A DNA stretch of 64,000 nt from Beijerinckiaceae bacterium (GTDB lineage: Bacteria > Pseudomonadota > Alphaproteobacteria > Rhizobiales > Beijerinckiaceae), in contig JBBIIT010000003.1 in assembly GCA_037446355.1 (NCBI GenBank), forward strand, positions 22,751 to 86,750, in the 5' to 3' direction. Position 1 is the stretch's first letter; every line of letters begins with the position of its first letter. The notes under the pieces are model-generated. The model made no database searches. It was not told the origin of the DNA and worked only from the letters and a program-made list of their open reading frames with translations. Below, piece after piece: positions 4,437 to 39,000 of this stretch. The translations under genes were made by a program, and so were the position numbers.

Positions 4437-5756
4437 ATGCGTCGTTCGTCTAGGATTTTGGAAATCGCGGTGCTGGCGAGCGTCAGTTTCGGCGGAACAG
4501 TCGCGGTTCGCGCGCAGAATGCGAGCAATGCCGCGCCGGCCTTTGACTGGACCGGATTTTATATCGGCGGCCACATCGCGGAGGATTTCACCAGCACGCT
4601 TTATAAGCGTCCTTTAGATCCGTCGCTCGCCGACACGACGATCGGCTCGATTGGCGACAAGGCGGGCGTCGGCGCCTCCGTCGGATTTAACTACCAGTTT
4701 TCGCGATGGGGGGTCGTCGGCCTCGAAGCGACGGAAACGTGGATGGACGCGCCAGTGCGCGAACTCGGTTCTTCCAACGATTTTCTTGAACATATCGATT
4801 CTGTCGCGGCCGTGAGCGCGCGCGCGGGCCTGCTCGTTCGGCCGGACACGATGGTGTTCGGTTCGGTCGGGCCGGCTTGGATGCGGGTCAATGGCTTCAA
4901 GGGATTTGGCCAATCGATGAACGCCATCGTGCCCGGCGTTCAGCTCGGCGCGGGCTTCGAGACGTTTATCACTCGCAACGTCTCCCTGCGCGTCGAGGGT
5001 TCATATACCGGCGCCACTCAAGCGCTGGTGTTGAATAATTCCTTCGATCACTACTTGCCGTCGATCCTTCAAGTCCAGTTCGGCGCCGAATATAAGTTCG
5101 ATGCGCCGGGCGGCTGGGGTTTCAAAGACGTCGCCGTATCGGATGCTGTCGGCGCGCCGCCGAAATGGACGGGGTTCGAAGTCGGCGGGTTTGCTTCGGT
5201 GAACGGCAATCAAATGGGGTATTCGGACCTCAACCAGGGTGATTCCGGTCCCTATACCCGGTTCGGGATCGGCGGCGGCGCATTCGTCGGCGCAAACTAC
5301 CAGCTCAACGACCGCTTTGTCGTCGGCGCCGAACTCAGCGGAAACTACAATCATGCGCGCCTAGTGAACGCCGCCGGCACGAACGGCTATCTCGGCCCCC
5401 TCTTCGATTTCGCGACGATCGAGAATTTCATGGCCCTGACCGGACGGGTCGGCGCGCTTCTTTCGCCCGGCACGCTCATCTACGTCAAAGCCGGCGGCGC
5501 CTGGGTCCAGACGACGACCGATTTCGGTTACTGGAACAATGTCGCTCCGAACTCGACAGGTTCGCGGACCATGGGCGGCTATCAGGTCGGTTTGGGCGAT
5601 GAGACTTTTATCACGTCGAACGTGAGCTTGCGGTTCGAGACAATTTACACGCACCCCAGCGGCACGATCAGTTTGAACGGTAGCGTCTTTCCGAACCAAT
5701 TCGCGCTGCGTCCGGCCGTTCTTTCCGCGACCAGCGGCGTAGCCTATCATTTTTGA
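4437..5756 (+). CDS. Outer-membrane protein with two tandem Omp25/RopB-like beta-barrel domains
   Basis: Signal peptide ending AVRA-Q. Two similar halves begin DWTGFYIGG and KWTGFEVGG, each with GxxxGxNYQ, xRxGxL...TxxY and LRxE motifs; terminal YHF. ATG 4437 chosen over upstream in-frame starts. Confidence 0.8.
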   Translation: MRRSSRILEIAVLASVSFGGTVAVRAQNASNAAPAFDWTGFYIGGHIAEDFTSTLYKRPLDPSLADTTIGSIGDKAGVGASVGFNYQFSRWGVVGLEATETWMDAPVRELGSSNDFLEHIDSVAAVSARAGLLVRPDTMVFGSVGPAWMRVNGFKGFGQSMNAIVPGVQLGAGFETFITRNVSLRVEGSYTGATQALVLNNSFDHYLPSILQVQFGAEYKFDAPGGWGFKDVAVSDAVGAPPKWTGFEVGGFASVNGNQMGYSDLNQGDSGPYTRFGIGGGAFVGANYQLNDRFVVGAELSGNYNHARLVNAAGTNGYLGPLFDFATIENFMALTGRVGALLSPGTLIYVKAGGAWVQTTTDFGYWNNVAPNSTGSRTMGGYQVGLGDETFITSNVSLRFETIYTHPSGTISLNGSVFPNQFALRPAVLSATSGVAYHF

Positions 5757-10225: not shown

Positions 10226-12224
10226 CGTGGCGCTGTCCGTACCGGAGCGGTTGTTGAATTTGCCCGCACAGCGGCTTTGCCCGGAAGCGCCGGAACGGAA
10301 GGAAACCAATCTCGAGGGACTAGCGGCGTCGCTCCATTCGCGAGCGGTCGCAGCGATGTCGAGGCGGCGCGCACGATCGCTGCGCCGCATCCTCCCGCTT
10401 GTGAACGCTCATGAGGCCGAGTTCGCGGCCCTCTCCGACTTCGAATTGTTGCCGCGCGCTCGGGAGATAGCAATCGACCTCCGACGCGAGGCCGATTTCT
10501 CCGACGCATTAACGGGGCGCGCGTTTTGCCTGATCCGCGAATTGTCGGCGCGCATTCTCGGCAAGCGGCACTTCGACGTCCAGATCATCGGCGCTTTCGC
10601 TATGGTCAAGGGTATGCTCGCCGAAATGGCGACCGGGGAAGGCAAGACGCTGACCGCGACCCTGGTGGCGGGAACCGCGGGGCTCGCGGGCATTCCCATT
10701 CATGTGGTGACGGTGAACGACTATCTCGCTAGACGCGACGCGGAACTCATGCAGCCCCTCTATCGGGCCTTGGGTTTGAGCGTCGGGATCGTCGTCAGCG
10801 GCCAAAGCTTGCACGAGCGGCAAGCTGCGTATGCATGTGACATCACCTATTGCACCAATAAGGAATTAACCTTCGATTACTTGCGCGATCGCATGTTGCT
10901 CGGCCAAACGGTCGGCGATCTCAAGCTTAAGCTGGAGACGCTTCACAGCGATGCGCCTCGCGCGCGCGAACTGCGAATGCGCGGGCTTCATTTCGCGCTG
11001 GTCGACGAAGCCGACAGCGTGCTGGTCGACGAGGCGCGCACGCCGCTGATCATCTCCGGAGGCGCTGGCGCCGCTATTGGCGAAGAGACCGTCGGCAGCG
11101 CGCTGAAACTCGCATCCGCGATGGAGGCGGGCGTCGATTTCATCGTCTCCACCGAGGATCGAAGGATTTTCCTGACCGTGGCCGGCCAGTCGCGCGTCGA
11201 GCAGTTCGCGAAATCGCGCGCCGGACATTGGCGCAGCGTCGTCAGTCGAGAAGAGCTGGCGCGCCAAGCGCTTGCCGCCCTTCACCTGTTCCACAAGGGC
11301 GAGCAATATGTCGTCGCCGATGGCAAGGTGCAGATCGTCGATGAATATACCGGCCGCATCATGCCGGACCGGCTGTGGAGCGACGGGTTGCACCAGATGA
11401 TCGAACTCAAGGAAGGCTGCGCACTATCGGCGCGGCGCGAAACGCTCGCGCGCATAACCTATCAGCGCTTCTTCCGCCGCTATCGCCGACTGGCCGGCAT
11501 GAGCGGCACGATGCAGCCCGTGGCGGCGGAACTCTGGCGCGTTTATCGGCGTCGCGTAGTGACGATCCCGACCGCGAAGCCGGTGTTGCGTATCCATCGC
11601 CCCGATGTGGTGCTTGCGACCCAGGATGAAAAGTGGCGACGCATCGTCGAGCGCGTGGCGGCCCTCAATGCCGTCGGCGCTCCCGTGCTTATCGGTACGC
11701 GATCCGTCACCGCCTCCGAGCGCGCGAGCGAGATGCTAACCGCGGCGGGCTTTCGACACGAGGTTCTCAATGCGCTGCAAGACAAGCGCGAGGCGGAGAT
11801 CATTGCCGAAGCAGGGCGAAGCGGCCGGATAACGATCGCGACCAACCTCGCGGGACGCGGCACCGACATTCATCTGGGCGAGGGTGTGGCCGCGCTCGGC
11901 GGGCTGCACGTCATCATGACCGAACGCCACGACGCGCGCCGCATCGATCTTCAGCTTGCGGGCCGCGCCGGAAGGCAGGGCGAGCCGGGGTCGTTCGAGG
12001 CGATCCTATCGCTGGAGGATGACTTGATGAACAATGAGAATGGCGTCGCCTTGTCCGGGCTGGCCAAGTGGCTGGCGCGCTATGCGGGCGCCTGGGCGGG
12101 GCGGGGCGCCGCCGAATATGCGCAGAAGCGCGCCGAACGGCTGCACGCGCGGATGCGCGCCGACTTGCTCCGCTCTGATCGATGGCGAAAGCAGACGCTC
12201 GCCTTCACCGGACGGCCCGAGTGA
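10218..12224 (+). CDS. SecA-like DEAD-motor ATPase paralogue, C-terminally truncated (668 aa)
   Basis: MATGEGKT (10626), VTVNDYLARRD, DEADSVLVDEARTPLIISG, IVDEYTGRIMPDRLWSDGLHQ, ATNLAGRGTDI and QLAGRAGRQGEPG. The protein ends shortly after the start of the helical scaffold and overlaps the M50 gene by 8 nt. Confidence 0.9.
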   Translation: MSDVALSVPERLLNLPAQRLCPEAPERKETNLEGLAASLHSRAVAAMSRRRARSLRRILPLVNAHEAEFAALSDFELLPRAREIAIDLRREADFSDALTGRAFCLIRELSARILGKRHFDVQIIGAFAMVKGMLAEMATGEGKTLTATLVAGTAGLAGIPIHVVTVNDYLARRDAELMQPLYRALGLSVGIVVSGQSLHERQAAYACDITYCTNKELTFDYLRDRMLLGQTVGDLKLKLETLHSDAPRARELRMRGLHFALVDEADSVLVDEARTPLIISGGAGAAIGEETVGSALKLASAMEAGVDFIVSTEDRRIFLTVAGQSRVEQFAKSRAGHWRSVVSREELARQALAALHLFHKGEQYVVADGKVQIVDEYTGRIMPDRLWSDGLHQMIELKEGCALSARRETLARITYQRFFRRYRRLAGMSGTMQPVAAELWRVYRRRVVTIPTAKPVLRIHRPDVVLATQDEKWRRIVERVAALNAVGAPVLIGTRSVTASERASEMLTAAGFRHEVLNALQDKREAEIIAEAGRSGRITIATNLAGRGTDIHLGEGVAALGGLHVIMTERHDARRIDLQLAGRAGRQGEPGSFEAILSLEDDLMNNENGVALSGLAKWLARYAGAWAGRGAAEYAQKRAERLHARMRADLLRSDRWRKQTLAFTGRPE

Positions 12225-16707: not shown

Positions 16708-17571
16708 ATGCTCCCTATTTCGACGCCGCGAAGCCTGCGAGGCTTTTACGTCCTGTCGGCCCTGGCGGCGGCGCCGGGAATGGCGCTAGCCGCACCGGGA
16801 GCATTCGATTGCGTCATGGAGGCCTCGCTGATCGTGAAAGTCGGATCCCCAGTCGCAAGCATCGTCGACGATGTTCAAGTAGATCGCGGAGCGGTGGTCA
16901 AAAGAGGGGACGTGATCGCGCACATCGCCTCTAAGGTCGAGGAATCGGCGGTTGCATACAACAAATTGCGGTCCGAGAGCACGGCGGAAATCGAGGCCAA
17001 GGCGGCGATCCTCGTACAAAAATCCGGAGTGCTCCGCCGAAAGCTTGGTTTGGCCAAGGAGCATGTCGGCGCTTCGCAGGACGTCGAGAACGCGACAGCG
17101 GAGTTCAACGTCGCGAGTCAGGAGCTGGAACTCGCCAAGCTCAATCATCACATGGCCGAAATAGAGTACGAGCGGTCCAAAGCCGAGATGGAGCTGCGCA
17201 CCATCCGAAGCCCCATCGACGGCATCGTGACCCAGCGTTCGATCGGGCCGGGCGAATATTTCCATCAAGAATCGTCGATCGCCACCATCGCTAGGGTCGA
17301 TCCTCTTTACGTCGAAACCTTTCTGCCGGTCAGCCTCTACCAACAGGTGAAGATCGGCGACGTCGCGCTGGTCCATCCCGCCGAGCCGATCGGAGGCGAG
17401 CGCGAAGCGAAAGTCACGGTCGTCGACCAGGTGTTCGACGCGGCGAGCGGCACCTTCGGGGTGCGTTTGGCGCTGCCTAACGCGGACGACGGGCTTCCTG
17501 CGGGACTACGGTGCAAAGTGACTTTCGGCGAAACAAGTGCGGCGCAAGCCTCGACGACGCCGAAACCCTAA
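16708..17571 (+). CDS. Membrane-fusion (RND/HlyD periplasmic adaptor) protein
   Basis: Hydrophobic N-terminus, FDCVMEASLIVKVGSPVASIV, VDRGAVVKRGDVIA, coiled coil, IRSPIDGIVTQR and VFDAASGTFGVRL. Confidence 0.85.
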   Translation: MLPISTPRSLRGFYVLSALAAAPGMALAAPGAFDCVMEASLIVKVGSPVASIVDDVQVDRGAVVKRGDVIAHIASKVEESAVAYNKLRSESTAEIEAKAAILVQKSGVLRRKLGLAKEHVGASQDVENATAEFNVASQELELAKLNHHMAEIEYERSKAEMELRTIRSPIDGIVTQRSIGPGEYFHQESSIATIARVDPLYVETFLPVSLYQQVKIGDVALVHPAEPIGGEREAKVTVVDQVFDAASGTFGVRLALPNADDGLPAGLRCKVTFGETSAAQASTTPKP

Positions 17572-20957: not shown

Positions 20958-20967
20958 CGAGGCCGCG

Positions 20968-21840: not shown

Positions 21841-21867
21841 GCCGGGCGCAAACCATCGGAGTCATGC

Positions 21868-23217: not shown

Positions 23218-23982
23218 ATGACAAAACAACTGCTGATTTACGAGCGCGCGACCGGGGTGAATGCGCGCGATCATAGAGACGTTTCGATAAAGACGAGCAA
23301 CGATTTCAGCTTCGCGAGGGACGTGAACTCGGTGCCGCTGATGGCGGTCGAATTCGAACTTGCGAGTTCGGAATATGCGATCGTGTTTTCGGGCGAATCG
23401 TCAGCGGTCATGCCCGCTGCGTTGCTCGGAATTCGCGACAACGAGAATCTATATGTCGACGAGCATGGGGTCTGGAACGCGAAATATGTTCCGGCCTTCG
23501 TTCGTCGCTACCCCTTTGTCTTCTCGTCGGCGGACGGAGCGACATTCACGCTTTGTCTGGACGAGGAGTTCCATGGCGTGAACCGTCGCGGTCTCGGCGA
23601 ACGGCTGTTCGACGCCGAGGGGCAGCGAACGCAATATCTGCAAAGCGTTCTGAACTTTCTCCAGGCGTATCAGGCTCAGTTCGAGGCGACCCGGGCGTTC
23701 ACCGCGCGATTGGTCGAACTCGATCTTCTCGAAGCGATGCAGGCTCAGTTCACACTGCGATCCGGCCAGAAAATCACGCTTGGCGGTTTCACGGCGGTCA
23801 GTCGGACCCGCCTCCGCGCGCTCTCGGGCGACGCCCTCGCGCGTCTAGCCGCCAACGGCGATCTCGATCTGATCTACGCGCACTTGCATTCGCTGCGCAA
23901 TTTCACGCCGACAGCGGAACGTGTGCTGCGGGTGCTCGAACCCACCGCCGCGACATCGTCGCCTGCGTTGTCGGACGCCTGA
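23218..23982 (+). CDS. sapC: SapC family protein
   Basis: FSFARDVNSVPLMAVEF, PAALLGIRDNENLYV, YVPAFVRRYPFVF and LDLIYAHLHSL. Confidence 0.85.
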   Translation: MTKQLLIYERATGVNARDHRDVSIKTSNDFSFARDVNSVPLMAVEFELASSEYAIVFSGESSAVMPAALLGIRDNENLYVDEHGVWNAKYVPAFVRRYPFVFSSADGATFTLCLDEEFHGVNRRGLGERLFDAEGQRTQYLQSVLNFLQAYQAQFEATRAFTARLVELDLLEAMQAQFTLRSGQKITLGGFTAVSRTRLRALSGDALARLAANGDLDLIYAHLHSLRNFTPTAERVLRVLEPTAATSSPALSDA

Positions 23983-24097
23983 GCCCGACGACAACAAGAA
24001 GAGGCTGGAAACGGCCCGGAAGCTGCATCCGAAAGAGTCGCTCATAAGACTTCTTGTGGGCGTTCAGACGTTTTGACGATCTGAAGAGGATTGATTC

Positions 24098-27000
24098 ATG
24101 GCTTTTCCGTTTCAGTCCGAGGGTTTGTTTGGACGCCCCAAGCGACCGACTCCAAGGAAGCCACGCAGCCGCTGGACGCCTCTGCACTGGTTCTGGCGCG
24201 ATGGACCGCGCGCCGCCCGCGCGCGCGCGAGTCGCGGCCGCCTAGCTTTCACGCCTCTCGAACCGCGTTTGCTGCTCAACGCGGACGTGCTCGCCATCAA
24301 TCTGACGCACGATCTAGGCGCGCCGCCGGTCGACCACTCGTTGATCGTTCAGTTGGTGCACGAGACCGAAAAGGTCAACAACCAAGCCGTCAACGTCCAG
24401 CGTGTCCAGATCGTCGACCAGAACAACGGCGCAGTGCTCGCCTTTGGCGATCTTGCCGCGATTTCCGCGGTTTCCATACACGACTCCGGCGCTGGCGCGG
24501 ATACGCTGACGATTGACGCGAATTCGTTCAAAGGTCTGGCGGCGCCGAAAATCTCGTTCGACGGCGGTTCGGGCCAAAGCCACATCGTCTTCGACAACTC
24601 GAGTCAAACGGATTGGACGCTGACCGGCGCCAATGCGGGCGTCGTCAGCGGCGACGGCGTGAGCCTGGCGTTCCAGGGCGCCGCCAATTTGACGGGCGGC
24701 GTCAACAACGCCGACATCCTGACCATAGACAAGGGCGGGACGTTGTCGGGGATCTTCGACGGCGGCGCGGGCGGCCACAATTCGCTCGTATTCGACAATG
24801 GGCCGCACACGACAGTCGCTTCGTCGGTCGGCCCGACCGGGCGGACGATCACGCTCGACGGTCAGTCACTCACTTATCTGAACGTCGATTCGACCAACGT
24901 TGGCGATCCCGCACTGCTCGACCTCAGCGCGAGCACGAATCTGAATCTCGAAGTGGCGCAGAGCGGCGCCAATCTGCATGTTTTCGGCGTCAATGGGTCC
25001 ACCTATGACATGACGCTGGCCCCCACGGCGGGTCAGGCGTTCGAGCTCAAGCTCGGTTCCGGCGATACGCTCAAGGTCGATGCGATCGATTTCGGCTCCA
25101 TCGCCTCAGGGACCGCGTTCAACATCGACGGCGCGGGCGCATCGATCGAGTTCGCGGGAAATTTGACCGACAATTCGGGCGTATCCGCTTCGGTCAGCGC
25201 TTCCGACACCAGCTCCATTACGACCGATATCGCCAGCGAAAGCCTGGCCCCTTCGGCCCAGAACGCTTCGATCACCCTCGATCAGGGCTACACGATCAGC
25301 GCCAGCACGATTTCGCTGAGCGCAAATTCGTCGGCGAGCGAGACGATTTCGAACATCAATTTGACGTCGCATCTCGTCACGAGCGCGACGATCAGCACGA
25401 CCAACAGCGCCCAGATCACTATCAACGGAACGTTGAGTTCAACGGGCGCCGTGTCTCTCGTCTCCAATGTCAATGTCAACGATTCCATAGCGAACAGCAG
25501 CGGCACGCTGATCCACTCGACGACGATCACGGCCAAAAACACTTCGTCGGTGACATTCGGATCCGCCTCCGTCGTGTCAGCGGGCACGCTCGATGCGGAA
25601 GCCAACACCAACGTGTCGGCGTCGATCAGCGTCCAGAGCATTGGCGCCGGGGTCATCCCCGGCTTCGTCCCCGCCTCGCTCCTCGGCGTCGCCGTTCAAG
25701 TCTCCATCGGCATCACCAATCAAACCACCGTCACGTTGGCCCCTGGCGGCGCCATCACGGTCGGTTCAGGGTCGATTTCGACCGCCAAACCGGTTGCAGC
25801 CTATATCGCCGCCACCGATGTCACCAACCTTTCGACCACGCTCTCTCTCGACGATCCCGCGTCGTTGCCGGTCGTCGGCAATGTCCTGGTGTTCAGCGCC
25901 CTCGATAGCGCGGACACGCTTTCGCGTACGACTGCGGTCGACGTCGGAAATCTGAGCGCCACCGCCGCGCCGTTATCGTCGGCGACTGCGGCGCTTTCGT
26001 CGTCCGGCGGCGATTTCTCGCTCGACACCACCAACAGCGGCGCGGTCGTGAATAATGAAACGTCCACGGGTCTGGGAACCGTGGAGATCAATGCGCCCGC
26101 GGACTCTGCGACAGTCGAAGTCTCCGGCGTCAATGTGAACGCCGGCGGTCTATCGGAGACGTCTCTCAGCAACACCAGCTACTCCGAGCTTGGCCATCTG
26201 GCGGCCATTTCGGTCGGCGGCCAAACGGAGGCGATCCTTCAATATGACGGCGTCACCGTCGGCGCCGACGGACTGGTCGTCTCCACCGAAGACGATTCCT
26301 CGATGACCGCGTCGTCGGTAGCGCCGAGTTTCGATCCGAACACGACGACCGAATCGGGCTCGTCGACCTCGGGCACGCAGATCGCGGTCAATCGAACCAC
26401 TTCCGTGATCTCCTACAATAAGGACACGGTCGCGATCATCCTGGGTTCCACGGTCAATTCGGGCGGCTCCGTTCGGGTTCAGGCCGTCGACAATGTCTCC
26501 ATTTCTTCGGACGCCGTGATGGCGGCGAACGCGACCTCGAGCGGCAGCGCGTCGGTCTCGGGAGGCGGCGCGCTTGCGGCCAATCTAATCAACGGGGCTA
26601 TCTCCGCCTCGATCGAGAGTTCCTCGGTCACGACGACTGGGACCGGCGACGTTCGGGTCTTGGCAGGCGATTCATCGACGATCGCGTCACGCGCGGAGAC
26701 GAGCGCGTCCGCGACCGGAACCTCGACCGCCGCGGGCGTCGCGGGAACCGTATCGCTTAACGCAGTCGGCTGGACCTTCGGGACCGGCGCCGCGGACCTG
26801 CTCGGCGCGGCTCTCGGCACAGTGCTCGGCACAAACAGTTTCTGGACCGACAACGCTCCGACCGACATCACCGCGGCGGGCAACAAGGCGAACGTTGTCG
26901 CCAAGATCACCGATTCGACCGTCGCCGCCGCCGGCGCTCTGCTCGTTCAGGCCGTGGCCGCGAGCGCGATCAACTCCACGATCACCAATGTTTCGCAGGC

Positions 27001-30000
27001 CACGGCTACCGCGAGCGGCAACGGCGTCGCCGTCGCGGTCGGCGGCGTCGCAGCGTCCAATCGGGTCAGTCGCGCCGCCACCGCGTTTCTCAAGAACGTA
27101 ACTCCGACATCCATCGGCGGCTCAATAGCAAGCGGCGCGATCTCGGTGTCCGCGCAGAACAATTCCTCGGTCACGTCGAATTCTTCGCTGGTTACCTCGG
27201 CGGTGGCGACGACCGCAGGCGCCAAGACCACATACGTATCCACGGACAAGCCAGGCAACGCCAGCAGTTCGACGACAGCGTTGCAGCCGACGACTACGCT
27301 CAATTTCGGGGACACCGTTCTTTACAAGGCGACTTATTCCACCGCAAATCTGTTCGGAACGAGCGTTCCGAAGAAGGAGACCGTCAATCCCGGGGACAGC
27401 GTCTTCATTGCGCCAGGCTATCCCAGCGCCAAAGGCGTGGCCGATCAAGTCTATGTGTATATCGGGTCGAAACCGGAAACCATCGATCTGGAACAAGAGG
27501 ACTACACCGTCACCACGAACTGGAAGCCGGTGTCCGTCGTCAATGGCGCGGTTTACAAGTTCATGGGGCCCGCCAACACCAACGTCGCCCTTTCGACCGG
27601 GGATCTGTTTGACAGTACCGGCAAAGCGATTTCGACGATCACGCCCGATTACTACGACCTCGGTTATTGGCAGAAAGTTCCAAAAGCCGAGCTGACACCG
27701 AGCACCGATGACAAAGGCCACACAACCAGCGGCTCGGCGAGTGGCGCGGCCGTCGGCGGTATCGTCGTACTCAATGAAGTTCATGGCGGCGCCTACGCGA
27801 TCGTGACAAATTCGACCGTCACCGGCGGCTCGCTCGCCGTTTCGGCGATCGACAACGAAACGATCAACGCGACGATCGACGCGACCGCCACCGCGAGCGG
27901 CGGCTCGTCTTTCAATAAGACCGGCGGCGGCAGCTCGGGAACCACGCTCGCCATTAACGGCTCGGTCGCGATCAACGAAATTCTCGGCAATGCCGACGCG
28001 CATGTTCTCGACAGCGCGGTTACGACGAATTCCGGCGACGACAGCATCACGGCGACCAACGAGTCCGACATCACGGCTTCGACCGCGAGCGCGGTGTCGG
28101 CAAGTTCCTCGGGCGGAACCACCGTGGCCGTCGGCGTGATCATGGCCGACAATACGATCGGTGCGGCGTTCCAGAACTTGCTGGCCTCGACGGTCGATAC
28201 GATCGCCGGCGGCGGCGTACTGGGGTCGCAGGCGCCGACCGTCACCACGGCCTATCTCCAGGACTCGTCGGTCTCCGCTACCCACGGCGGGCTGAACGTC
28301 GCCGCGAGTTCGACGGAAAACGTCAACGCGACAGTGACCAACGCGACGACCGCTGACGTGGAGCCGGCCGACGGCAGCAAGAGTTTCGGCGCCGCCGCGG
28401 TGTTCACCGACAACCAAATTCTGACGGGCGTCACCGCCTACATCGATCTGGCCGCGGCCGCGGTCGGCGCGCAGGTGGCGGTGGACGGGGCGCTGGCCGT
28501 CGGGGCGACGGACAACGCGACGATCACCACCGCGTCGACGATGACCGCGCTCGGAACTCAGGCCGCGAGCGGTCCCGCGAACGACTATGCCACCCTCGCC
28601 AAGAGCAGCTACAAGTTCACCAATCTTTCGGGCTCACAGACGCTTAATTTTGGCGATCAGGTCGCTGTCCAGCAGGCCGACGGAACGATCATCGTCTATC
28701 GCTATATGGGCGTCACCGCGACGGGCGTCGATCTTGGCAGCCTCACCACCGATACGACGGCCAAGCACTACACGGACCTTGAATACTGGAAGCCGCTTTC
28801 CGCCGATCAACTCAAGCAGGAGGCTGAAGCCAAGTCCGCCAATCCGACCACGGGAACCGCGCCAGGCGAGAGCGTCAGCCACGACAGCAACAATACCGAG
28901 TTCGGCTCCGCCAGTCTTTATGTGCTGTTCGATTACAACAACGTGGCAAGTTCGACGACCGCCTACATCAACAAGGCGACGGTGACAGGCGGTTCCGTGG
29001 CGGTGAACGCCAGCGACACGGCCACGATTTCAGCGACCGACGGCAGCGTGGTGACCACGGGCGCGGGCGGTTTTGGCGCCGGCGGCGTCGTCGCGACCAA
29101 CCATGTCACGGGTTCGTCGACGGCCTATATCGAAGCCTCCACTGTTGCGGCGACGGCGGGCGCGGTGGCGCTCGACGCCGAGAACACCTCGACCATCACC
29201 GCGACCGAAACGACCGCGCTCACCGCGGACGGCAGCGCCGTCACGGTGGAAGCCGCCTTCAACGTCATCGGATGGAGCGGCGACAATTTCGGCTCGCTCG
29301 CGCTGTCGACTTTGATCGGAACCGACAGCCTTCTCGGCACGGCGTCCCCCGACAACACGCAAGCCTATATCGACGGCGCTTCGGGCGTGACCGCTTCGGG
29401 CGACGTCACGGTCGTCGCCAACGGCAAGGCGACGATCAACTCCACCGTGGGCGACCAAGCCGCGGCGGGCAATGGCGACGCGACGTCCACGCTCAACGTC
29501 GGCGGCGTGCTGGCGACCAACAAGATCAATACGGCGACGCAGGCCTATATCGGCACGGCGCCGAGCGCGCTGGCGACGGCGACGACGCTCGATACGTCCT
29601 CGGCCACGGCGACCGGCGGAACCGTAAAGGTCGCTGCGACGGACAGCCCTACGCTCACCGCGACGTCCACCATCACCCTCAGTGCGACAGCCTCCACCGG
29701 CGGCGTCGCCGCCGCGCTGTCGGGCGATTACAAATATACCGACAAGTCGGGCACGCAGACCGTCAAGAAGGACGATCAGGTCTACACTTACGACTCGGCC
29801 ACGAGTACGGCGACGGTTTACACTTACGTCGGCAATTCAAGCACCCCGAGCGCGGGCGATTCCGTCGACCTGGGCGCGACAAGTTATACCAGCTCCCTGT
29901 GGAAGAAGTCGGGCTCCGGCGCGCCCGCGGCCGACGCCTCGAAGGCGGAAGCCAAGGCGGTCGGCGCGGTCTTCGTTCTCAACGACGTGCGCGGACTTGC

Positions 30001-33000
30001 GGACGCGACGATCGCGGTGGCGCCGGGCGCCGCCAGCGGTAGCGGCCTCGTCACCGGCGGGACTGGGATCAGCGTCACCGCCAACGAGGCGGCGTCGATC
30101 ACCGCCGACACCGAGAGCAACCTGACTTCAACGGGCGGCGGCAATGGGACCGCCACCACCACCGCCAATCAGACGACGCAACCGGCGGAGCCGACCGGCA
30201 ACCCGAGCACCACCACCCAGCCCGGGGGCGGTCTGGCGCTCGGCGGCGCGATCGACACTAATCTCGTGCTCGGGAACGCGCAGGCCTCGATCCAAGGCGC
30301 CACGCTGAGCGCGGGCGCGAGCGGAGTCATCGTCAACGCGCAGGACACCGCGCAACTCGACGCCACCACTCTCGTAGCTTCTTCCACTGGCGGCGCGGGC
30401 TCCCAGGGCGCCTACGATCTCTCGATCGCGTTCAACTCAATCGGTTACGCGCCCGAGAACTTCTTGTTCAACGCGGTCGATGCTCTGGTCGGCGGCGCCT
30501 ATCTGGCGTCCGCGACGCCCGACAACGCGACCGCCTATCTCAAGGGCGTGACCGTCACCAGTGACTCGGGCGCGCTCAGCGTGACCGCGCAGAGTAACGA
30601 ACAGGTCAACGCGACAGTCAGCAACGCCGCGGGCGCGACGACATCGGCCCTTTCCGAAGCCTCAAGCACCGGCTTTGGCGGAGTATTCGCGTCAAACAAA
30701 GTCGATGGCAGCGCGATCGCCTATATCGACGAAACCGGCGTCAGCAAGCCGATCGCGGCGACCGGCGCCCTCGTTGTATCGGCGACCGACGGCTCCGGCG
30801 TCTTTTCGAACGTCAAGCTGGTCTCCAGCGCCATCGTCACCCCGGACGGCGGCACGGGCGCGCTCGACGCCAAGCTGAACGGCTCGAATGGCGCCTCGTT
30901 CAACACCGCGCCGACCGGCGGCGGCGTCAATAACAACCAGAACCTCGTGTTCGGCGCGACGGTGCTGGTCGGGGCGGGTTACGACACGCCGGACTATACA
31001 ATCGGCGCGCCCGGCGTCGGCACGGTCACGCTGAAGACCGGCGACGTCGTCGCCGACGGAGCGGTGTTCTATCGCTACACCGGCACGGGCAAGTCCGAGA
31101 ATCTCGCCACCGATCCAGGCCTCGCGACCGATCCCGATTTTTCGGTGATCGGCGGGCAGGAAGGCGCGACCTACCAATACATGGGACCGCCGGCCTCGAC
31201 CGGCTACACCGGCAAGACCTACGATCTCAACAACACCGACTACACCGATCTTGCGTTCTGGAAGCTTGTGCCGCTGACGAACGTCGTGCCCAGCGGATTG
31301 AAGACCCCGGCCCCCGGCTCGACGACGACCGCCGCGACCGGCGGCGCCGAGAAGGACGGAACGGCCTCCAACGATTCCAGCGGCAACGCCAAGCCGTCGC
31401 AGGCGACGGCGGTCGGCGGAATCCTCGTCTTGAACGACGTTCGTTCCGCGACTCAGGCCTACATCCTGAACGCGACCATCAGCGCTGATTCCGCGACGGT
31501 GAGCGCGCTCGATCAGGCGACGATCACCGCGACCAACGACAGCACTGTCGTGGCGCAGACCAGCACGCTCGGAAGCGGGTCCAATCTCGCCCTCAACGGC
31601 ATCATCGCGACAAATCTGATCCAGAACTCCGCCGATGCGCATGTCGAGACCAGCAGTCTGACGGCGAGCAACCCGGCGACGCCCGTGGCGGGAAGCCCCA
31701 ATGCTCCGGTAGAGTTGACGATCAACGCGGAGAACGACGCCAGCATCAACGCGATCAACGACGCGCAGACTTCCGGCGGCGGCAAGGCGGCGGGCATCGT
31801 GCTCGCGTTCAACACCATCGGTTATCAGTCGAGCAATTTCCTGTTCAACGCGGTCGACGGGCTGCTGGGTAGCAACATCCTCGCGTTCGGCAAGAGCCCG
31901 CTTTCCAACGTGACGGCCTATGCCGACGCCTCGACCCTCGATGCGACCCATGGCGGCGTCTCGGTCACCGCGAGCCTGACCGCCAAGATCAATGCGTTGA
32001 CGACCAATCTGACATCGTCGCTCGGCGCCGCGCTCGAGAACGCCAGCAGCGTCGCGGTCGGCGGCATCATCGCCACCAACGAGACGAATACATCCGCCAA
32101 CGCCTACATTAGCGGGGGCTCGGCGACGGCGGGCGGCGATATCACGATCAACGGGTCGGATCGTTCGCGCATTATCGCCAACGACCAGCAGGTCGTCTCG
32201 TCGACGCTCCAGGATACGGGAACATCGAACAGCAATGTGCTCAGCAATTACGCGAGCCAGATCAAGCAGGGCTACCAGTACACCGCGCAGTCCGGGGTGC
32301 AGTCGATCGCCCCCGGCACGATCGTCTACGACAATCACAACCAGAAATATTATGTATTCCTGGGGTCGGTGACCAACACGACGCAGGCGCCGGAATCCGT
32401 CGATCTCGGGACCACCGACTACACGAACTCCAACCCGGCCGCGCACGGAAATGTGCCGCTGTGGGCCGAGTTCACCAATTCGGTGCTGCTCACCGCGCTG
32501 CCCGATTTCACGACCGTCAAACAGGCGGGCGATCAAGGCACTGGCTCCTCCTCGACCGCCGTCGGCGCGATCTTCGTGCTGAACGCGATCACCAGCGTGG
32601 TCAACGCCTACGAGGACAGCGCCGTTCTGACGAGTGGTTCGGGCGCAGCCGCCGGGGCTTTCGGCGGTCAGATCGCGATCGGGGCATCCAATTCCAGCGC
32701 CGTCAACGCGACCAATTCGAGCACGACGACCGCCTCGAATGGCAAGTCGGGCCCGACGACCACTTCGCCCGGTTCAGGGTTGGCGATCAACGGCATCATC
32801 GCGACCAACAATATCCTCGGCGGCACGGTCGCTTATGCGCACAAGGGATCCGTGACGGCGAGCGGCACGGGCGGATCGGTCAATGTCTCGGCGACCTCCA
32901 ACGCCGCGATCGACGCCGAGAACACAGCCTCCACTGACGCCAAGACCGATTCTGTCGGGGTCGTGCTCGCGTTCAACACCATCGGCATTGCGATGCCAGT

Positions 33001-36000
33001 GGCGGGCTTCCTCGAGAACACGGTCGACGCGTTGTTCGGAACCAGCCTCGCCGGCGAGCAGCCCGACCTGGTTCACGCCTATATCGACAGCGTCCCTGTC
33101 GTGGCCTCCGCGGGGGTCGCCGTTCAGTCGAACGAGACTTCGAGCATAACGGCGAAGATCAACAACGCCGAGACGGGCCTGTTCACCTCGGGGGTCAGCG
33201 TCGGCGCGACCGTCACGCTCAACCGCATCGCGAACGATGTCGGCGCGTGGATCACCGGCGGCAGCATTCACGCCAGCAAGGGCGACATCGACGTCGGGTC
33301 GCAGGACCAGGCTACGATCGCGTCGACGGTGCTGACGCCCATCGTCAAGCTCGCGGCGAGTTTCAGCAAAAGTTCGACAAACACGAATGCCACGACTGTC
33401 GGCGTCAGCATCGCGCGCAACATCATCGAAAACACGGTGTCCGCGGCAGCGGGCACAGCGGCCGGCGGCACGACCCTCACGGCCGACGACGGCAACATAG
33501 CGATCACCGCCAATCAGATGGCCTCGATCACAGCGACTTCCGCCTCCGCGGCGGTGAGCCTCGGCGTCACCACGAGCGGCAATTCGGGCGCCTTCGCAGG
33601 CGGCGGCGCCGTCGCCATAAATACGATACTCGGCGGCGTCACCGCGTCCTCCTTGAATTCCGCCCTCACCGCGACGACTGTCGATCCGAGCACGGGCGCG
33701 ATAACGGTTTCCGCGACCTATGGCGGGAGCATAACGTCGATCGTCGCCGCCTTGGCCGTCGCGCTCAGCGTTAGCGACGGCGCGGCCGATGCGGTCGCGA
33801 TCGGCGCCGCGGTTTCGCTTAATCTGATTGGTTGGCGCGGCACCGTTGCGGACGAAACGCAAGATTCTCATAACCCGATCACGCTCTCGGCCGACGTCAA
33901 TGGCGGCTCGCTGACATCTGGCGCCGCCGCCACCGTCGCCTCAACTTCCAGCGCCACCATTCAGGCCACGACTCTGGCCGCGGCGGTCGCGATCAGCGCC
34001 TCGACCAGCGGCGGCTCCAACAGTGGGCAGGAAAGCACCGCCGGCAATAGCCCGACCGACGCCAACACCGAAGGCAAGGGCTCGGTCACGAACGCTTCCG
34101 GCGGCAAGTCGGCGACGGATCTTGGCAGCGCCAACGGCACGACGGTCAACGAAGGTTCCGATGTCGCGGGCGGCGCCGAAACCAATCAGGGCGAAAAGGG
34201 CGGCGCCGCGGCGGGCCAGGCGGGGAACACTGCCAGTTCTGAGTCCGGCGCGAGCAAGGGCAGTTCCACCAGCCTCGCGACGGGCCTGGGCGCCGGCGGT
34301 GGCATTCTGGTGGGATTGGGAGGCGTCGTTTCTTCCGCCAAATCTGGCGGTTCCGCGCCCGGGCCGACCTTCACGACGACCGACGCGACTTTGCCGACCG
34401 ACGTGCAGTCCGTGAGCAACGGCAACACGGTCCAGCTATCTTCCAGTTACGATACCGCCAAGTTCAGCGTCGGCACGGATACCTCGCCGAAGAATGGCAG
34501 CGGCAACAGCACTGGCGGACAAGGCAGCAACACCAATTCGACCGTGAATCCCGGCGACGTGGTCGACGACAGCGGAACTTTATACCGCTACGTCGGTCCG
34601 ACAGCGTTGACGGGCGTCGATTTCGAAGTGGGCGCGACGCCGCCTGATTTCACTTCGACGACGAATGGCGTTGCGAATTGGGTCAAAATCGGCGGCACGA
34701 CCGGCCATACCTATCAATATATTGGCGCCACGAACGGCTCGCTCGACCTCAACAATCAGGATTACACCGACGCGACGCTCTGGAGCGACATCACCGGCGG
34801 CAACAGCGCGGGCGGCTCCGGCACGACCAGCGCGCCTTCGGGTGCGACGCCCTCACTCGGCTCGGGCCTCGGATTCCTCAGCGGCGGCTCGGGCGCCACC
34901 AGCACGCCGCAGACGCCGGCCGGAGCGACCAATCCCTCGTCGGAATCCAACCCGTCGGAACCGGCGACCAGCACGACCTCGACCGAAGATCAATCGACCC
35001 AAAGCAAGGAGAGCAAGAACTCCTCCTCGCTGAGCTTCACGGGCGCCGGCGTCTATACCGAGAACAAGATCGCCACGACGATTTCGTCGACGATCGAGAA
35101 CACGACCAAGATCACAACGGGCTCGGGCGCCAAAGCCGGTCTCAGCGTCACCGCGGCGGATAGTGCGCACATCACCTCGCTCGATGGAGCGGCGGCGATC
35201 TCCGCCAACTTCTCATCGAGTTCCAACAGCAACACGATTTCGATTGGCATCGGCATCGCGCGCAACACGATTCAGGACTCCGTCACCGCCAGCGTCACCA
35301 GCGCCGGGTCGATCGTCGCTCCGAATGCCCCGATCACGATTTCGGCGACGCAGAGCGCCGACATCGAGGCGACTTCGGTCGCCGCTTCGCTGGCGATCAG
35401 CGCCAGCACGAAGGACGCGACCTCCGTCGCCGGCGGCGGCTCGCTCGCGGACAATCTGATCGGCGTCAAGACCGACGCGAGCCTCGACAGCACCGCGGTC
35501 GGCGCCGCCGGAAATTCCACCGGGGCGCTCGACGTCACCGCAAGCGACACGTCGACGATCCACGCCATCGTCGCGGCCGCGTCGGCGGCGGTTTCATTCT
35601 CGAGCCAGAATGCGAACGCCGTCGGCATCGGCGCTTCGCTCGCACACAACCGCATCGGCGACGGCGCTGATACGGGTGGCGGCGAAGTCCTGGCCTCGAT
35701 CACGAATTCGCCCGTCCACAGCGGCGCGATCGATGTCAACGCGACTTCGCACCAGTCGATCGAAGCGCAGGTCATCGGCGCCGCGGTGGCGGTCTCCGGC
35801 GCCAGCGACGAGGCGACGGGTTTCACAGGCGCCGGCGCGTTCGCTTTCAACGAAATCGCCGTCACCGTCGGCGCCAAGATCGACGGCGGCGCCGCGAACA
35901 CGACCAACGTCGTCGATTCGGCGGGCGTGACGGTCGAGGCCTACGACACCTCCTCGATCAACGCGACCGTGTTCGCGGGCTCGGTCGCGGGCGCGTTCTC

Positions 36001-39000
36001 GAGTGAAAACGCGACCGCGGTCGCCATCGGCGTCTCGTTCGCGCGCAATTCCATCACCGATCCAGTCACGGCCGACATCGCCAATATTCCCGCGTTGACG
36101 ACCGGCGGCGGCGACGTGACCGTGACGGCCAAAGAGAACGCGACCATCGACGCCATCACGGCGGCGGTCGCCATCGGCGCGAGCATCAGCGGCCAGAATG
36201 GAACCGCGGTCGCGGGCGGCGGTTCGCTCGCCGCGAACATGATCGACGCGACGACGCAGGCCAATATCACCGCTTCGACGCTTGGCGACGCGACGCACAA
36301 TGTTGGCAAGGTGACAGTCACCGCGGAAGACAGCTCACAAATCAACGCCACTCTTGCCGCCATCGCCGTCGCCGCCGGCATCGGCGGCCAGGACGGCACC
36401 GCCGTCGCGATCGGTCTCGGTCTCGCTTACAACGAAATCGGCGATGCGACCGGCTTCGGCGCGGGCGCGGTCTCCGCTTACATATCGGGAACGACGACTT
36501 CGGCTTCCGGCCTCGTCGACGTTGAGGCGAAGAACGACGGTCTCATCCACGCCACCACTGTGGCGGTCAGCGCCGCGCTTTCGGGCGGCGGCACGACGGG
36601 CGTTGGCGTCGCCGCCGGGGGCGTCGCGGTGTTCAACACGGTCTCGGTGCCGGTCAGCGCCTATGTCGATGGTGGCGGAACCCATTCGCTCGCCTCCGGC
36701 GGCGTAACGGTGGCCGCGTCCGACACGGCGGACATCAAATCGCTCTCGGTCGGCGCGGCGGTCGCGCTCAGCCTCGCCGGCACGACCGGCGTCGCCGCGG
36801 CGATCGGCTTGTCCATCGCCGGCAACATCATCACGGACCCCGTCACCGCGTATATCTCCGGCGAGACTTCGCTCACGGCCTCGAATAATGCGGTCAGCGT
36901 AACCGCTAAGGAAAACGCCGCCATAAACGCCAAGTCCTACGCCGCCGCGATCGCAGGCTCGTTCGGCGGCACGACGGGAGTTTCGATCGCCGGAGGCGGC
37001 GCGACGGCGGAAAACCTGATCGACGCCACGACGACGGCCTATATCAGCAGCTCAACGCTTACGTCCGTCGGCGCGGTCAGCGTCGCCGCGACCGACAATT
37101 CGACGATCGACGCGGAAGTCGCGGCGGCAGCGGTCAGCCTTTCGGTCGGCGGCACCACGGGCGTCGCGGTCGGCATCGGCGTCGCCTATGCGCACAATCG
37201 CATCAGCGACGGCAGCGAATCGGGCGCCGGCGCGGTCAAGGCGTACGTCAGCGGTTCCTCGATCACCGGATCGGGCCTCCTCGACATCGAGGCCAACGCG
37301 AGCGAAACCATCACGGCCATGACGGACGCGGCTGCGGTTACGCTGGCCGGCGGTGGAACGACCGGCGTCGCGGTTTCCGGTGCGGGCGTCGGCGACGTCA
37401 ACCAAAGCAATGTCGCGATTTCGGCCTATGTCGATGGCGGTTCGATTAGCACGGGCTCGGTCAAGGTCTACGCGTCCGACGCCTCGCAGATCCTCGCTTT
37501 CGCGGGCGCTGCGGCGTTGTCGGGCGCTGTCGGCGGGACGGGCGGCGTCGCCGTATCCGTCGGCGTTTCGGTCGCGCTGAATTCGATAATGGACCCCGTT
37601 ACCGCTTATCTGAGCGGCCTTTCCTCGTTGACGACGGCCGTCAGTGGCGACATCAACGTCAACGCGTTCGAGGACGCGAAGATTCAGGCGATGTCGGTCG
37701 CGGCCTCCGCAGCGATTTCCGGCGGTGGTACGGCCGGGGTGTCCGTCGCCGCGGCCGGCGCGACAGCGCTCAACTTCATCGGGGCGCAAACGAAGGCGTA
37801 CATTACCGGTCTTACGACTTCCAACATCGGCGGCGGCGTCATCGTCACCGCGAAAGATAATTCCGAGATCGACGCCATCGTCGGCGCCGTCGCGGTCGCG
37901 GCGGCGGTCGGCGGCACCGCCGGCGTCGGCGTCGCGCTCGGCGTCGCGGTCGCCTTCAACGACATCACCGACGGCAATCCGGGCGGCGTCGGTTTCGTCG
38001 ACGCGCATATCGACACTTCGAGCGTCACCTCCACTGGCGTCGTCGACGTCGAAGCCACCGGACAGGAGACCATCAATGCGCTCACCGCCGCCGGATCGGC
38101 GGCGATCGGCGGTGGCGGCGCGGCGGGCGTCGGCGTCGCGGGAGCGGGCGCGGCGGGCGTCAACGCGATCACGGTCAACATCAAGGGATACGTCGGCGGC
38201 GGCTCTATCAGTTCGGGCGGCGTGACGGTTCTCGCCGAGGACACCTCGATTATTCGCTCCGAGGTCGACGCGGCCTCGCTGGCGGCGGGCGTCGGCGGCG
38301 CGGCGGGCGTCGCCGTCGCGGTCGGGATTTCCGTCGCGCTCAACAACATCAACGACAGCGTCGTCGCCGACGTCGCCGGAGTGGGTTCCCTCTCTACCGG
38401 CGGCGGGGCCGTCTCGGTCAACGCGCAAAACAGCGCGCAGATCACGACTCAGGCGGCCAGCGCGTCGGTGTCCCTGAGCGTCGGCGGCGCCGCGGGCGTC
38501 TCGGTCGCCGGCGGCGGCGCCGTCGCCAACAACGTGATCGGCATCGACACCGAAGCTTACATTTCCGGCTCGACGCTAACCTCAGTCAGCGCCGTCACGG
38601 TCGGAGCGACCGAAGGCGGAAAGATCGAGGCGCTCATCGTCGCCGTATCGGCGGCTGTCGCGGGCGGCGGCGCCGCGGGCGTCGGCGTCGCGATCGGCAT
38701 TTCGTTCGCGCACAACAACATTTCGTCGGGCGGCCTCGTGGGCGGCGGCGCCGGCAAAGTCGAAGCCTATGTGACGGGATCGTCGATCACCGGAACCGGC
38801 GCGGTCTCTGTTAACGCAACTTCGTCGGAAGCCATCGACGCGCTCGTCGCCGCCGGCGCCGCGGCTTTGACCGCCGGCGGCGCGGCCGGTGTCGGCGTAT
38901 CGTTCGCGGGCGCGTTCGGGTTCAACGAAATCTCGATTTCCACCCGCGCCTGGGTCGACGGCGGCGGGACGCAGACGATCTCGACAACCGGGCTGAATGT

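Follow-up and report, generated by a model that had tools for sequence, protein, structure and literature searches.

The first ~63 residues of an 11,232-residue surface-type protein from a Beijerinckiaceae bacterium (GCA_037446355.1) are a LEPR-XLL tag, a known but unexplained N-terminal element that here replaces a normal signal peptide. Genome comparisons show that the tag almost always travels with, and usually sits beside, one membrane protease-adaptor export gene set, so it is most likely the address label of that machine. The partner that stays constant is a PqqD(RRE)-M50-HlyD fusion protein and not the short SecA encoded next to it. Coupling of the giant cargo to this machine is very likely, whereas binding and cleavage of the tag are inferred. 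The DNA analysed, referred to as the window, is a stretch of 64,000 nucleotides carrying both the giant gene and the cassette (Table 1). Genomes of the comparison set are given by G numbers and contigs of the source genome by C numbers.

The leader of the giant protein

A preliminary description of the window, made from the letters alone, had reported a strongly basic, Arg/Trp/Pro-rich leader that ends in LEPRLLL, lacks a hydrophobic core and is followed by an acidic, small-residue-rich region. This observation holds. Residues 1-53 contain 11 Arg, 2 Lys, 1 Asp and 1 Glu, giving a net charge of +11, and Arg makes up 20.8% of this stretch against 0.9% of the whole protein, Pro 15.1% against 2.8% and Trp 5.7% against 0.5%. 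The WTPLHWFW patch spans aa 26-33, although it is not conserved even in a same-family genome (G230), LEPRLLL is aa 54-60 and FTPLEPRLLLNAD covers aa 51-63. Residues 61-260 then turn acidic, with 6 R/K against 19 D/E and with G, A, V, D, L, S, T and N dominant. Is the motif more than a chance match? The stretch matches the NCBIfam model NF012209 (LEPR-XLL) at 22.9 bits against a curated cut-off of 17 (E 4.3e-5), and in a six-frame search of the whole 3.6-Mb genome it is the only real hit (25.2 bits, E 7.3e-5). A second hit, on contig C29, lies 190 residues inside a non-coding-looking frame and was rejected as spurious. The match is at the extreme N-terminus of a very large protein, as for the family, but the window's tag is a weak, divergent member: only model positions 5-21 are matched (aa 53-69), with Thr instead of Glu at -2 and Asn instead of Ser at +7. 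The assigned start is consistent with the Shine-Dalgarno-like sequence before the ATG, and a stop two codons upstream means that no signal peptide is hidden further up; the orthologue in G230 begins with MAFPFKSEG.

Could the leader be an atypical Sec or Tat signal, with a genomic linkage to the cassette that has no functional meaning? It does have a positively charged N-region followed by a short hydrophobic patch, LLLNADVLAINL (aa 58-69). This patch is the most hydrophobic 12-residue window in aa 1-80 (Kyte-Doolittle 1.73), but it is interrupted by Asn and Asp, no h-region precedes the motif and the 15-residue maximum is 0.93. By contrast, the neighbouring OmpA-like protein, used as a control, has a normal h-region (2.19 over 12 residues and 2.01 over 15). 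There is no uninterrupted hydrophobic run of 7-15 residues and no AxA site, and direct reading of aa 1-70 shows no twin-arginine S/T-R-R-x-F-L-K motif; a dedicated signal-peptide predictor was not applied. This reading is very unlikely, as it would also leave unexplained the tight adjacency and subtype co-variation across three phyla described below. The tag instead behaves as a portable linear signal. Only about 17 residues are conserved, at 10-100 residues from the first ATG (an approximate start), and they precede unrelated first domains. AlphaFold leaves aa 1-80 without secondary structure, but the alignment was shallow and heterogeneous (mean pLDDT 49.8), so that disorder is only suggested.

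Table 1. Features of the leader, its cargo and the neighbouring export cassette (positions in the window)
Position	Strand	Feature	Remarks
24085..24090	+	Shine-Dalgarno-like AGAGGA	7 nt before the ATG
24098..24256	+	Basic, Arg/Pro/Trp-rich N-region of the leader (aa 1-53)	Its last six residues, RLAFTP, occupy the place of the family's alternating h-x-h-E pre-motif
24257..24286	+	LEPR-XLL core LEPRLLLNAD (aa 54-63)	E55 and R57 invariant and L60 nearly invariant among 18 aligned leaders
24287..24337	+	Linker up to the first predicted folded element	That element begins near aa 81; pLDDT 40-57 for aa 1-80
24098..57796	+	Giant cargo ORF, 11,232 aa (24098-24290 encodes aa 1-64)	The only Pfam domains found are RTX repeats near the C-terminus
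52982..54220	+	Start of the RTX (HemolysinCabind) calcium-binding repeat region	Best stretches at aa 9629-9664 and aa 10006-10041, further repeats downstream
8078..10225	+	PqqD(RRE)-M50 protease-HlyD adaptor fusion	Proposed reader and trimmer of the tag; HExxH (H210, E211, H214) and N304/P307/D312 invariant in 19 homologues
10218..12224	+	Short SecA paralogue (668 aa)	DEAD motor and preprotein-binding domain; proposed motor of class A cassettes
6205..8070	+	GAF-HlyD adaptor
16708..17571	+	Third HlyD-type adaptor
23218..23982	+	SapC-family gene	Directly upstream of the giant gene; a recurrent neighbour of LEPR giants
4365..5756	+	OmpA-like beta-barrel protein at the head of the cassette	Kept only in the closest relatives; role in export unknown

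Association of the tag with the export cassette

The preliminary description had proposed that LEPRxLL is the recognition and cleavage signal of a PqqD-M50/SecA machine, analogous to RiPP leader motifs. This interpretation is partly supported. It had also named in advance what would count against it, namely LEPRxLL proteins being common in genomes without the exporter, and this is not what the genomes show. At a LEPR threshold of E<=1e-3, 45 of 48 genomes from three phyla also encode a PqqD(RRE)-M50-HlyD fusion, against 17% of all 703 genomes sampled. In the 401 genomes of the window's phylum, 41 of 42 with a LEPR hit at this threshold encode the fusion, against 97 of 401 overall, and all 38 genomes with a close (class A) fusion have a LEPR hit at E<0.1. 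In Nitrospirota, the 3 of 151 genomes with a LEPR hit are exactly the 3 with a class A fusion, and in Desulfobacterota 3 of 5 LEPR genomes have a fusion, against 12 of 151 overall. There are exceptions in both directions: three LEPR-positive draft genomes (G354, G679 and G702) showed no fusion even with a profile search, and two class A fusion genomes (G664 and G697) showed no LEPR hit. The 'tag-negative' fusion genomes examined carry divergent tags such as LEQRMMFDAAGA beside the fusion. The two genes are also physically close. Of 58 strong LEPR hits, 30 share a contig with a fusion gene, and in 27 of these the gap to the giant ORF is at most 20 kb (median 2.8 kb). The same holds in G402 and G589 (2.4 kb) and in named genomes from Nitrospira, Thiodiazotropha, Marinobacter and others.

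Two tag types track two machine classes. Tags of the form ..E-x-LEPRxLLSAD (type 1) sit beside class A cassettes, which usually hold a short SecA, while tags of the form ..LA-LEPRxMFDGAA (type 2) sit beside class B cassettes, which are SecA-less and TolC-linked. We read 23 pairs of LLSAD-type tags next to class A fusions and 24 pairs of MFDGAA-type tags next to class B fusions, with no crossed pair, even in two genomes that carry both systems (G230 and G386), where each tag lies beside its own class. Related genomes are not independent, however, and the tag types were defined after seeing the data. What, then, of the SecA partner? The short SecA is not constant: the whole of class B lacks it, five complete class B genomes hold only canonical SecA, and some class-A-like cassettes with LLSAD-type tags lack it too (G280 and Marinobacter suaedae G404).

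The proposed reader and protease

The RiPP analogy has a sequence basis. The only PqqD/RRE domain in the window is on the M50 fusion, where PF05402 matches aa 37-101 at 27.1 bits against a cut-off of 23.4. The first ~400 residues of the fusion (RRE plus M50) align with the daptide leader-protease model NF041824 over nearly its full length at E 2e-44, although the score is far below that family's cut-off (152 against 300 bits). The AlphaFold model (pLDDT 81.5) shows three strands plus three helices at the N-terminus and a MacA/MexA-like C-terminal part. A fold search with this model returned only the MFP part (MacA/MexA/AcrA) and adds nothing on leader binding, as it was not restricted to the RRE. 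Membrane topology by hydropathy gave an ambiguous helix count, so the cytoplasmic position of the RRE rests on homology with RiPP proteases and on the periplasmic nature of HlyD domains. Between classes the RRE is the most diverged module relative to its within-class conservation (18% between classes against 40% within class A), but this is weak evidence because the class B rows were truncated alignment fragments.

Another reading inspired by RiPPs is that the tag recruits neighbouring radical SAM, halogenase, methyltransferase and prenyltransferase-like enzymes to modify the giant protein, with export being secondary. Two B12-radical SAM genes, another radical SAM, a Trp-halogenase, a WelO5-like oxygenase and two methyltransferases are indeed packed between the cassette and the giant gene, and close relatives keep several of them. 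However, these enzymes are missing from most LEPR loci, whereas the adaptors and the M50 fusion are constant, and none of them shows a PqqD/RRE domain, which makes this reading very unlikely.

Models of export

The explanation we favour, with moderate confidence, is that the stretch is the N-terminal LEPR-XLL leader of a giant RTX-type surface or secreted protein and works as the address tag coupling it to the neighbouring ABC-less, type-I-like export cassette. In this view, the disordered basic leader would be captured in the cytoplasm by the RRE domain at the N-terminus of the M50-HlyD fusion, the strand-like pre-motif plus LEPRxLL(S/N)AD pairing with the RRE sheet as RiPP leaders do. In class A cassettes such as this one, the short SecA, which keeps its preprotein-binding domain, would thread the unfolded chain. 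The three HlyD-type adaptors would bridge to an outer-membrane channel, and the M50 zinc site would trim the leader at or just after the conserved block. What the analysis establishes is the anatomy of the tag, its co-occurrence, adjacency and subtype co-variation with the fusion protein, the intact protease motifs and an RRE-like and MFP-like predicted fold; direct binding, the direction of transport, cleavage and the cleavage site are inferences. That the RRE reads the tag is slightly more likely than not, and that M50 removes it is about as likely as not. No experiment shows binding, cleavage or export by this cassette, and no RRE-leader complex was modelled here. Moreover, an M50 protease is not known to form a protein-conducting channel and class B has no identified motor. 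Some outside support comes from tagged planctomycete proteins, which fractionate with the cell envelope (PMC8567305), and from the two LEPRxLL giants of Chlorobium chlorochromatii, which were localised outside the producer cell and are co-expressed with an acquired secA (bioRxiv 10.64898/2026.03.19.712371).

But why would a protein with an N-terminal address carry C-terminal RTX repeats, the hallmark of classical T1SS cargo that leaves C-terminus first? PF00353 matches at E 2.9e-29 in the last 1,332 aa and at E 1.8e-8 at aa 9629-9664, and 6 of 7 LEPR giants in five checked genomes also have RTX repeats near the C-terminus; a C-terminal secretion signal, for which there is no reliable sequence model, was not assessed. 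No full-length T1SS-type ABC exporter hit lies within the window. The only hit on its contig (C3) is a nucleotide-binding-domain match about 20 kb past the window's end, and the ORFs scanned around the giant gene (about 1.3-24 kb and 57.9-60.2 kb) show no ABC transporter. It would be tempting to conclude that the cassette must be the exporter because the genome has no classical T1SS, but this is ruled out: two complete HlyB/HlyD pairs lie on contigs C59 and C34, a TolC exists elsewhere, and all five other LEPR genomes checked also have T1SS-like ABC exporters. An alternative is tether and release, in which the giant leaves C-terminus first through this cassette or one of the classical HlyB/HlyD/TolC systems, and the N-terminal tag, the last part to leave, stays held as an anchor at the inner membrane by the RRE-M50-HlyD protein until M50 cleavage, perhaps gated by the GAF-HlyD sensor, releases it, analogous to LapA retention with LapG/LapD. 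The GAF sensor domain is a constant cassette member and the co-occurrence and co-variation data fit this reading equally well. However, the tag is about 60 residues predicted to be disordered rather than a folded retention module, no TAAG-type LapG site appears in aa 1-200, and the classical T1SS genes are unlinked to LEPR giants in every genome checked. The cassette also brings its own ATPase with a preprotein-binding domain and three TolC-docking adaptors, more than a release switch needs. This alternative is considered unlikely, though less so than the others.

Relation to known systems

That the function of LEPRxLL is unknown, as the preliminary description stated, understates the literature. 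NF012209 ('LEPR-8K', LEPR-XLL domain-containing protein) itself only names the motif, with no function or partner attached, but the planctomycete form RRLxxExLExRxLLA of Rhodopirellula baltica (Pfam PF07595, Planc_extracel) was proposed as an export signal in 2004 (Studholme et al. 2004, as cited in PMC8567305), without an assigned export machine. It has the same layout as the type 1 consensus found here, RR-h-x-h-E-x-LE-x-R-x-LL-S/A, yet the window's leader gives no PF07595 hit even at E<=10, and LEDR-type relatives reach only 11.4-15.9 bits against a gathering threshold of 25.5. The cassette was described as the 'secondary SecA_DEAD' conserved locus (Kamneva, Poudel & Ward 2015, PMC4452313), with the same gene set as in the window: GAF-HlyD, M50-like peptidase with HlyD, short SecA and HlyD. 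These authors predicted a type-I-like secretion role but named no cargo and no signal, and the SecA-less class B cassette with its own tag type is not described there. Literature searches, which did not cover subscription journals, found no paper linking the tag to the cassette.

Double-glycine leaders read by peptidase-containing ABC transporters (bacteriocin/NHLP export) are also N-terminal, non-Sec leaders removed by a protease domain built into an exporter that works with a HlyD adaptor. Here there is no GG/GA site in the conserved block and no C39 peptidase or ABC exporter among the ORFs scanned on either side of the giant gene; the protease is an intramembrane M50 fused to the adaptor, and the cargo is thousands of residues long rather than tens. 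RiPP systems with RRE-M50 leader proteases (NF041824 daptide, NF058609 YydH/LiaK) share the PqqD-like domain in a partner protein, but in the window the protease is fused to a periplasmic adaptor and the 'precursor' is a giant structural protein instead of a short peptide. With classical RTX type I secretion and LapA/LapG/LapD retention the locus shares a giant repeat protein with C-terminal RTX repeats, HlyD-type adaptors and a TolC-type outlet (the TolC-like gene is adjacent in class B), while its conserved signal is N-terminal rather than C-terminal.

Implications

How bacteria move proteins of 5,000-20,000 residues across two membranes is largely unknown outside classical RTX type I secretion. 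A curated N-terminal tag (NF012209/PF07595, 2004) and a computationally described SecA-like/M50/HlyD cassette (2015) have sat apart in the literature, and pairing them as signal and machine turns both into a testable system with a short peptide, a small soluble reader domain and clear point mutants. A broader view, which is possible but tentative, is that LEPR-XLL/Planc_extracel tags are the universal N-terminal address labels of a distinct, widespread, ABC-independent, TolC/MFP-type secretion route for giant proteins, in which an RRE-bearing site-2 protease fused to a membrane-fusion adaptor reads and removes the tag. This route would exist in at least two orthogonal tag-reader versions able to coexist in one cell: LLSAD tags, usually with a SecA-derived motor, and MFDGAA tags with an adjacent TolC-like gene and no dedicated ATPase. 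The presence of both classes in some genomes offers a natural specificity experiment. If the link holds, it would add an export route in which RiPP-style leader recognition is used for giant structural proteins, and it would also improve the annotation of thousands of giant 'hypothetical' proteins that signal-peptide predictors currently call cytoplasmic.

The leader and its family

The leader is the start of the longest ORF of the genome, which encodes 11,232 aa. The start of this ORF is sound: a stop lies two codons upstream of the ATG, an AGAGGA lies 7 nt before it, and a genome of the same family (G230) starts its orthologue with the same MAFPF-SEG residues, so no signal peptide is hidden upstream. 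The preliminary description had noted a strongly basic N-terminus without a hydrophobic h-region, ending in LEPRLLL and followed by a switch in composition, and this observation is confirmed. Residues 1-53 hold 13 Arg/Lys against 2 Asp/Glu, and Arg makes up 20.8% of this stretch compared with 0.9% of the whole protein. No hydrophobic core precedes the motif; the most hydrophobic 12-residue window in aa 1-80 is LLLNADVLAINL, which is broken by Asn and Asp, whereas the OmpA-like neighbour shows a normal h-region in the same test. After residue 60 the composition turns acidic and small. Residues 53-69 match NCBIfam NF012209 (LEPR-XLL) above its curated cut-off, and this is the only genuine match in the 3.6-Mb genome. 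Of note, the WTPLHWFW patch, also pointed out in the preliminary description, is not conserved even in the nearest relative, and the tag is a somewhat divergent member of its family. Coordinates of the features are collected in the table.

Features of the window and of loci in other genomes
Feature	Location	Strand
OmpA-like barrel	window 4365-5756	+
GAF-HlyD adaptor	window 6205-8070	+
PqqD-M50-HlyD fusion	window 8078-10225	+
SecA paralogue, 668 aa	window 10218-12224	+
Block of tailoring genes	window 12233-22836	
Third HlyD adaptor	window 16708-17571	+
SapC-family gene (PF07277)	window 23218-23982	+
Leader	window 24098-24290	+
Giant ORF, 11,232 aa	window 24098..57796	+
RTX (HemolysinCabind) repeats of the giant protein	window 52982-57796	+
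Three consecutive LEPR-tagged ORFs, Nitrospira MAG (G401)	C1:375346-409196	
Extra LEPR-tagged giant(s), genome G027	C1:2469530-2506279	
Extra LEPR-tagged giant(s), genome G006	C1:1442689	

What does the tag look like in other proteins? We read 67 such N-termini from other genomes. Only about 17 residues are conserved, and they lie 10-100 residues (median 38) after the first in-frame ATG, which is only an approximate start. Upstream of them lies a variable basic segment, and downstream a Pro/acidic or Ala-rich stretch and unrelated first domains. Two forms stand out. Type 1 is RR-h-x-h-E-x-LE(P/D/E)R-x-LL-S-(A/G)-(D/E), with Glu at -2 present in 34 of 35, and type 2 is x-(M/L)-(L/M)-A-LEPR-x-(L/M)-(F/L)-D-(A/G)-A-A. 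The window's RLAFTP-LEPRLLLNAD is a type 1 variant shared with its family (G230: LIFDP-LEPRVLLNSD). In an alignment of 18 type 1 N-termini, E55 and R57 are invariant and L60 nearly so. In several relatives (loci L007, L012, L013, L021, L023 and L027, alignment columns ~260-470, and the G230 locus L193) the tag is followed, after a Pro/acidic linker, by a shared domain of the DUF4347 type, for which PF14252 gives a weak hit in L193 (E 0.0017). The window's protein has a different first domain, so the tag is combined with different N-terminal modules. AlphaFold gives no secondary structure to aa 1-80 and starts the first beta element near aa 81, although the alignment is shallow and confidence is low. 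A short, portable, N-terminal linear motif in a disordered segment is what a targeting or processing leader looks like, not a folded domain.

The neighbouring cassette

Upstream of the giant gene, on the same strand, lie an OmpA-like barrel, a GAF-HlyD adaptor, a PqqD-M50-HlyD fusion, a SecA paralogue that keeps the motor and the preprotein-binding domain and, after a block of tailoring enzymes, a third HlyD adaptor, with a SapC gene directly before the giant gene. This is the locus described by Kamneva et al. 2015 (PMC4452313), who named no cargo. The block of tailoring genes comprises two B12-radical SAM genes, a WelO5-like oxygenase, methyltransferases, a Trp-halogenase, two unknown genes and a radical SAM gene; it is kept only in the closest relatives (loci L035, L112, L115 and L186) and is not a general feature of LEPR loci. 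The SapC-family gene, of unknown role, recurs next to LEPR giants or their cassette (loci L039, L040, L046, L048 and L049, and 10 of the 80 loci L112-L191). The fusion is the only protein in the window with a PqqD/RRE domain. Its first ~400 residues align with the daptide leader-protease model NF041824 at E 2e-44, below that family's cut-off, and HExxH and the N-x-x-P-x-x-x-x-D motif are invariant in 19 homologues. An AlphaFold model of the fusion (pLDDT 81.5) shows three strands plus three helices at the N-terminus, a helical membrane core with a beta hairpin, and a C-terminal part that matches MacA/MexA/AcrA adaptors.

Co-occurrence and adjacency of tag and fusion

Is the tag the recognition and cleavage signal of the neighbouring PqqD-M50/SecA machine, as the preliminary description inferred by analogy with RiPP leader motifs? 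Co-occurrence across genomes had been put forward there as a way to probe this inference, and we examined it in three phyla. In 401 genomes of the window's own phylum, a LEPR hit at E<=1e-3 occurs in 42, and 41 of these encode the fusion (E<=1e-20), compared with 97 of 401 overall; the exception is an 86%-complete draft. All 38 genomes with a close (class A, see below) fusion have a LEPR hit at E<0.1. In 151 Nitrospirota genomes, the three with a LEPR hit are exactly the three with a class A fusion. The picture is noisier in 151 Desulfobacterota genomes, in which three of five LEPR genomes have a fusion, compared with 12 of 151 overall, and two class A fusion genomes show no LEPR hit; all of these are multi-contig drafts. 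Pooled, 45 of 48 LEPR genomes at E<=1e-3 have the fusion, compared with 17% of all 703. Relatives are not independent, so the Fisher values obtained for these counts overstate the case, but the positives span at least 16 family labels in the window's phylum and three phyla in all.

The two genes are usually also neighbours. Of the 58 strongest LEPR hits, 30 share a contig with a fusion gene, and in 27 of these the gap between the giant ORF and the fusion gene is at most 20 kb (median 2.8 kb). Most of the others lie on contigs largely filled by the giant ORF. Among 80 class A loci from named genomes, a giant frame abuts the cassette in most, including Methylobacterium aquaticum, Labrenzia alba, Nitrospira, Desulfobulbus, Myxococcota, Methylomirabilia and Thiodiazotropha, and wherever the giant gene starts inside the fetched stretch, it begins with a type 1 tag. 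In the Nitrospira MAG G401, three consecutive LEPR-tagged ORFs (frames of 2948, 4548 and 1574 aa) lie directly upstream of a single class A cassette, which suggests that one machine can serve several cargoes. Some genomes (G027 and G006) carry extra LEPR-tagged giants 0.6-1.2 Mb away from any cassette, and these are orphan cargo genes.

Two tag types and two cassette classes

The fusions fall into two classes. Class A fusions (31-63% identical to the window's) sit in cassettes of GAF-HlyD, fusion, short SecA and HlyD, often with SapC. Class B fusions (24-31% identical) sit in cassettes of a TolC-like lipoprotein, HlyD, a GAF protein and the fusion, with no SecA (loci L050-L071, for example L054, L055, L056 and L064, and L193 and L194 on contigs G230:C4 and G386:C20). 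These class B cassettes lie beside large adhesin-like proteins that start with ..LA-LEPRxMFDGAA-type tags, and no ATPase is encoded in the loci. Five complete class-B-only genomes contain only canonical SecA, whereas class A genomes usually contain one short SecA per cassette.

Every adjacent pair we could read follows one rule: 23 type 1 tags sit next to class A fusions and 24 type 2 tags next to class B fusions, with none crossed. All 17 fusion-positive genomes without a LEPR hit are class B, and in the three where the start of the neighbouring giant gene was in the fetched stretch, it carries a divergent type 2 tag beside the fusion (LEQRMMFDAAGA, LEARMMFDGAVA or LEQRIAFDAAGA). G230 and G386, both relatives of the window's organism, carry both systems, each tag next to its own class. 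This fits cognate tag-reader recognition, though co-inheritance of linked genes would give the same pattern. The two tag types were defined after seeing the data, but position -2 was not used in the definition and still separates them.

The interpretation given in the preliminary description is partly supported. The coupling between the tag and the PqqD-M50 exporter is well supported, but the SecA part is not general: class B lacks it altogether, and some class-A-like cassettes with LLSAD-type tags also lack it, namely those of genome G280 and Marinobacter suaedae (G404), whose genomes hold only canonical SecA. Recognition and cleavage of the tag are still inferences. The constant partner, and hence the likelier reader, is the RRE-M50-HlyD fusion.

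RTX repeats and a possible tether-and-release role

By which route does the giant protein leave the cell? A complication is that its only recognisable Pfam domains are RTX calcium-binding repeats in its last ~1,600 residues. Of seven LEPR giants in five other genomes, six have RTX repeats, mostly towards the C-terminal end. RTX proteins normally leave C-terminus first through an ABC/HlyD/TolC system, and the window's genome also holds two complete classical type I secretion pairs, HlyB-type ABC plus HlyD, both above the NCBIfam cut-offs, and a TolC, on other contigs (C59, C34 and C72); none is linked to the giant gene. The other LEPR genomes checked also have unlinked T1SS-like ABC exporters. 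A tether-and-release role, in which the tag would be held by the RRE and cut by M50 to free the protein, therefore cannot be excluded, although we consider it unlikely. Against it stand the disordered nature of the tag, the absence of a LapG-type site, and a cassette that brings its own motor and three TolC-docking adaptors.

Relation to previous work and interpretation

The tag as a sequence feature is known (NF012209), and its planctomycete form, RRLxxExLExRxLLA (PF07595), was proposed as an export signal in 2004. In Tuwongella, 8 of the 10 longest proteins carry it, and 8 of the 20 tagged proteins that were detected occur only in the SDS (envelope) fraction (PMC8567305). The window's tag does not reach the PF07595 threshold. 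A 2026 preprint reports the two LEPRxLL giants of Chlorobium chlorochromatii as exported to the partner cell, 'lacking known signals', preceded by sapC (Cag_662) and co-expressed with an acquired secA. Our literature searches found no paper that joins the tag to the RRE-M50-HlyD cassette. The present analysis adds the two tag-reader classes, their within-genome separation, the dispensability of SecA, and the RTX/T1SS caveat.

Taken together, this is a real, divergent LEPR-XLL leader. Binding of the tag, the direction of transport and cleavage are inferred and were not tested, whereas coupling to the cassette is strongly supported by comparative genomics. With moderate confidence, the leader is most likely the address and processing tag for the adjacent RRE-M50-HlyD/short-SecA exporter.
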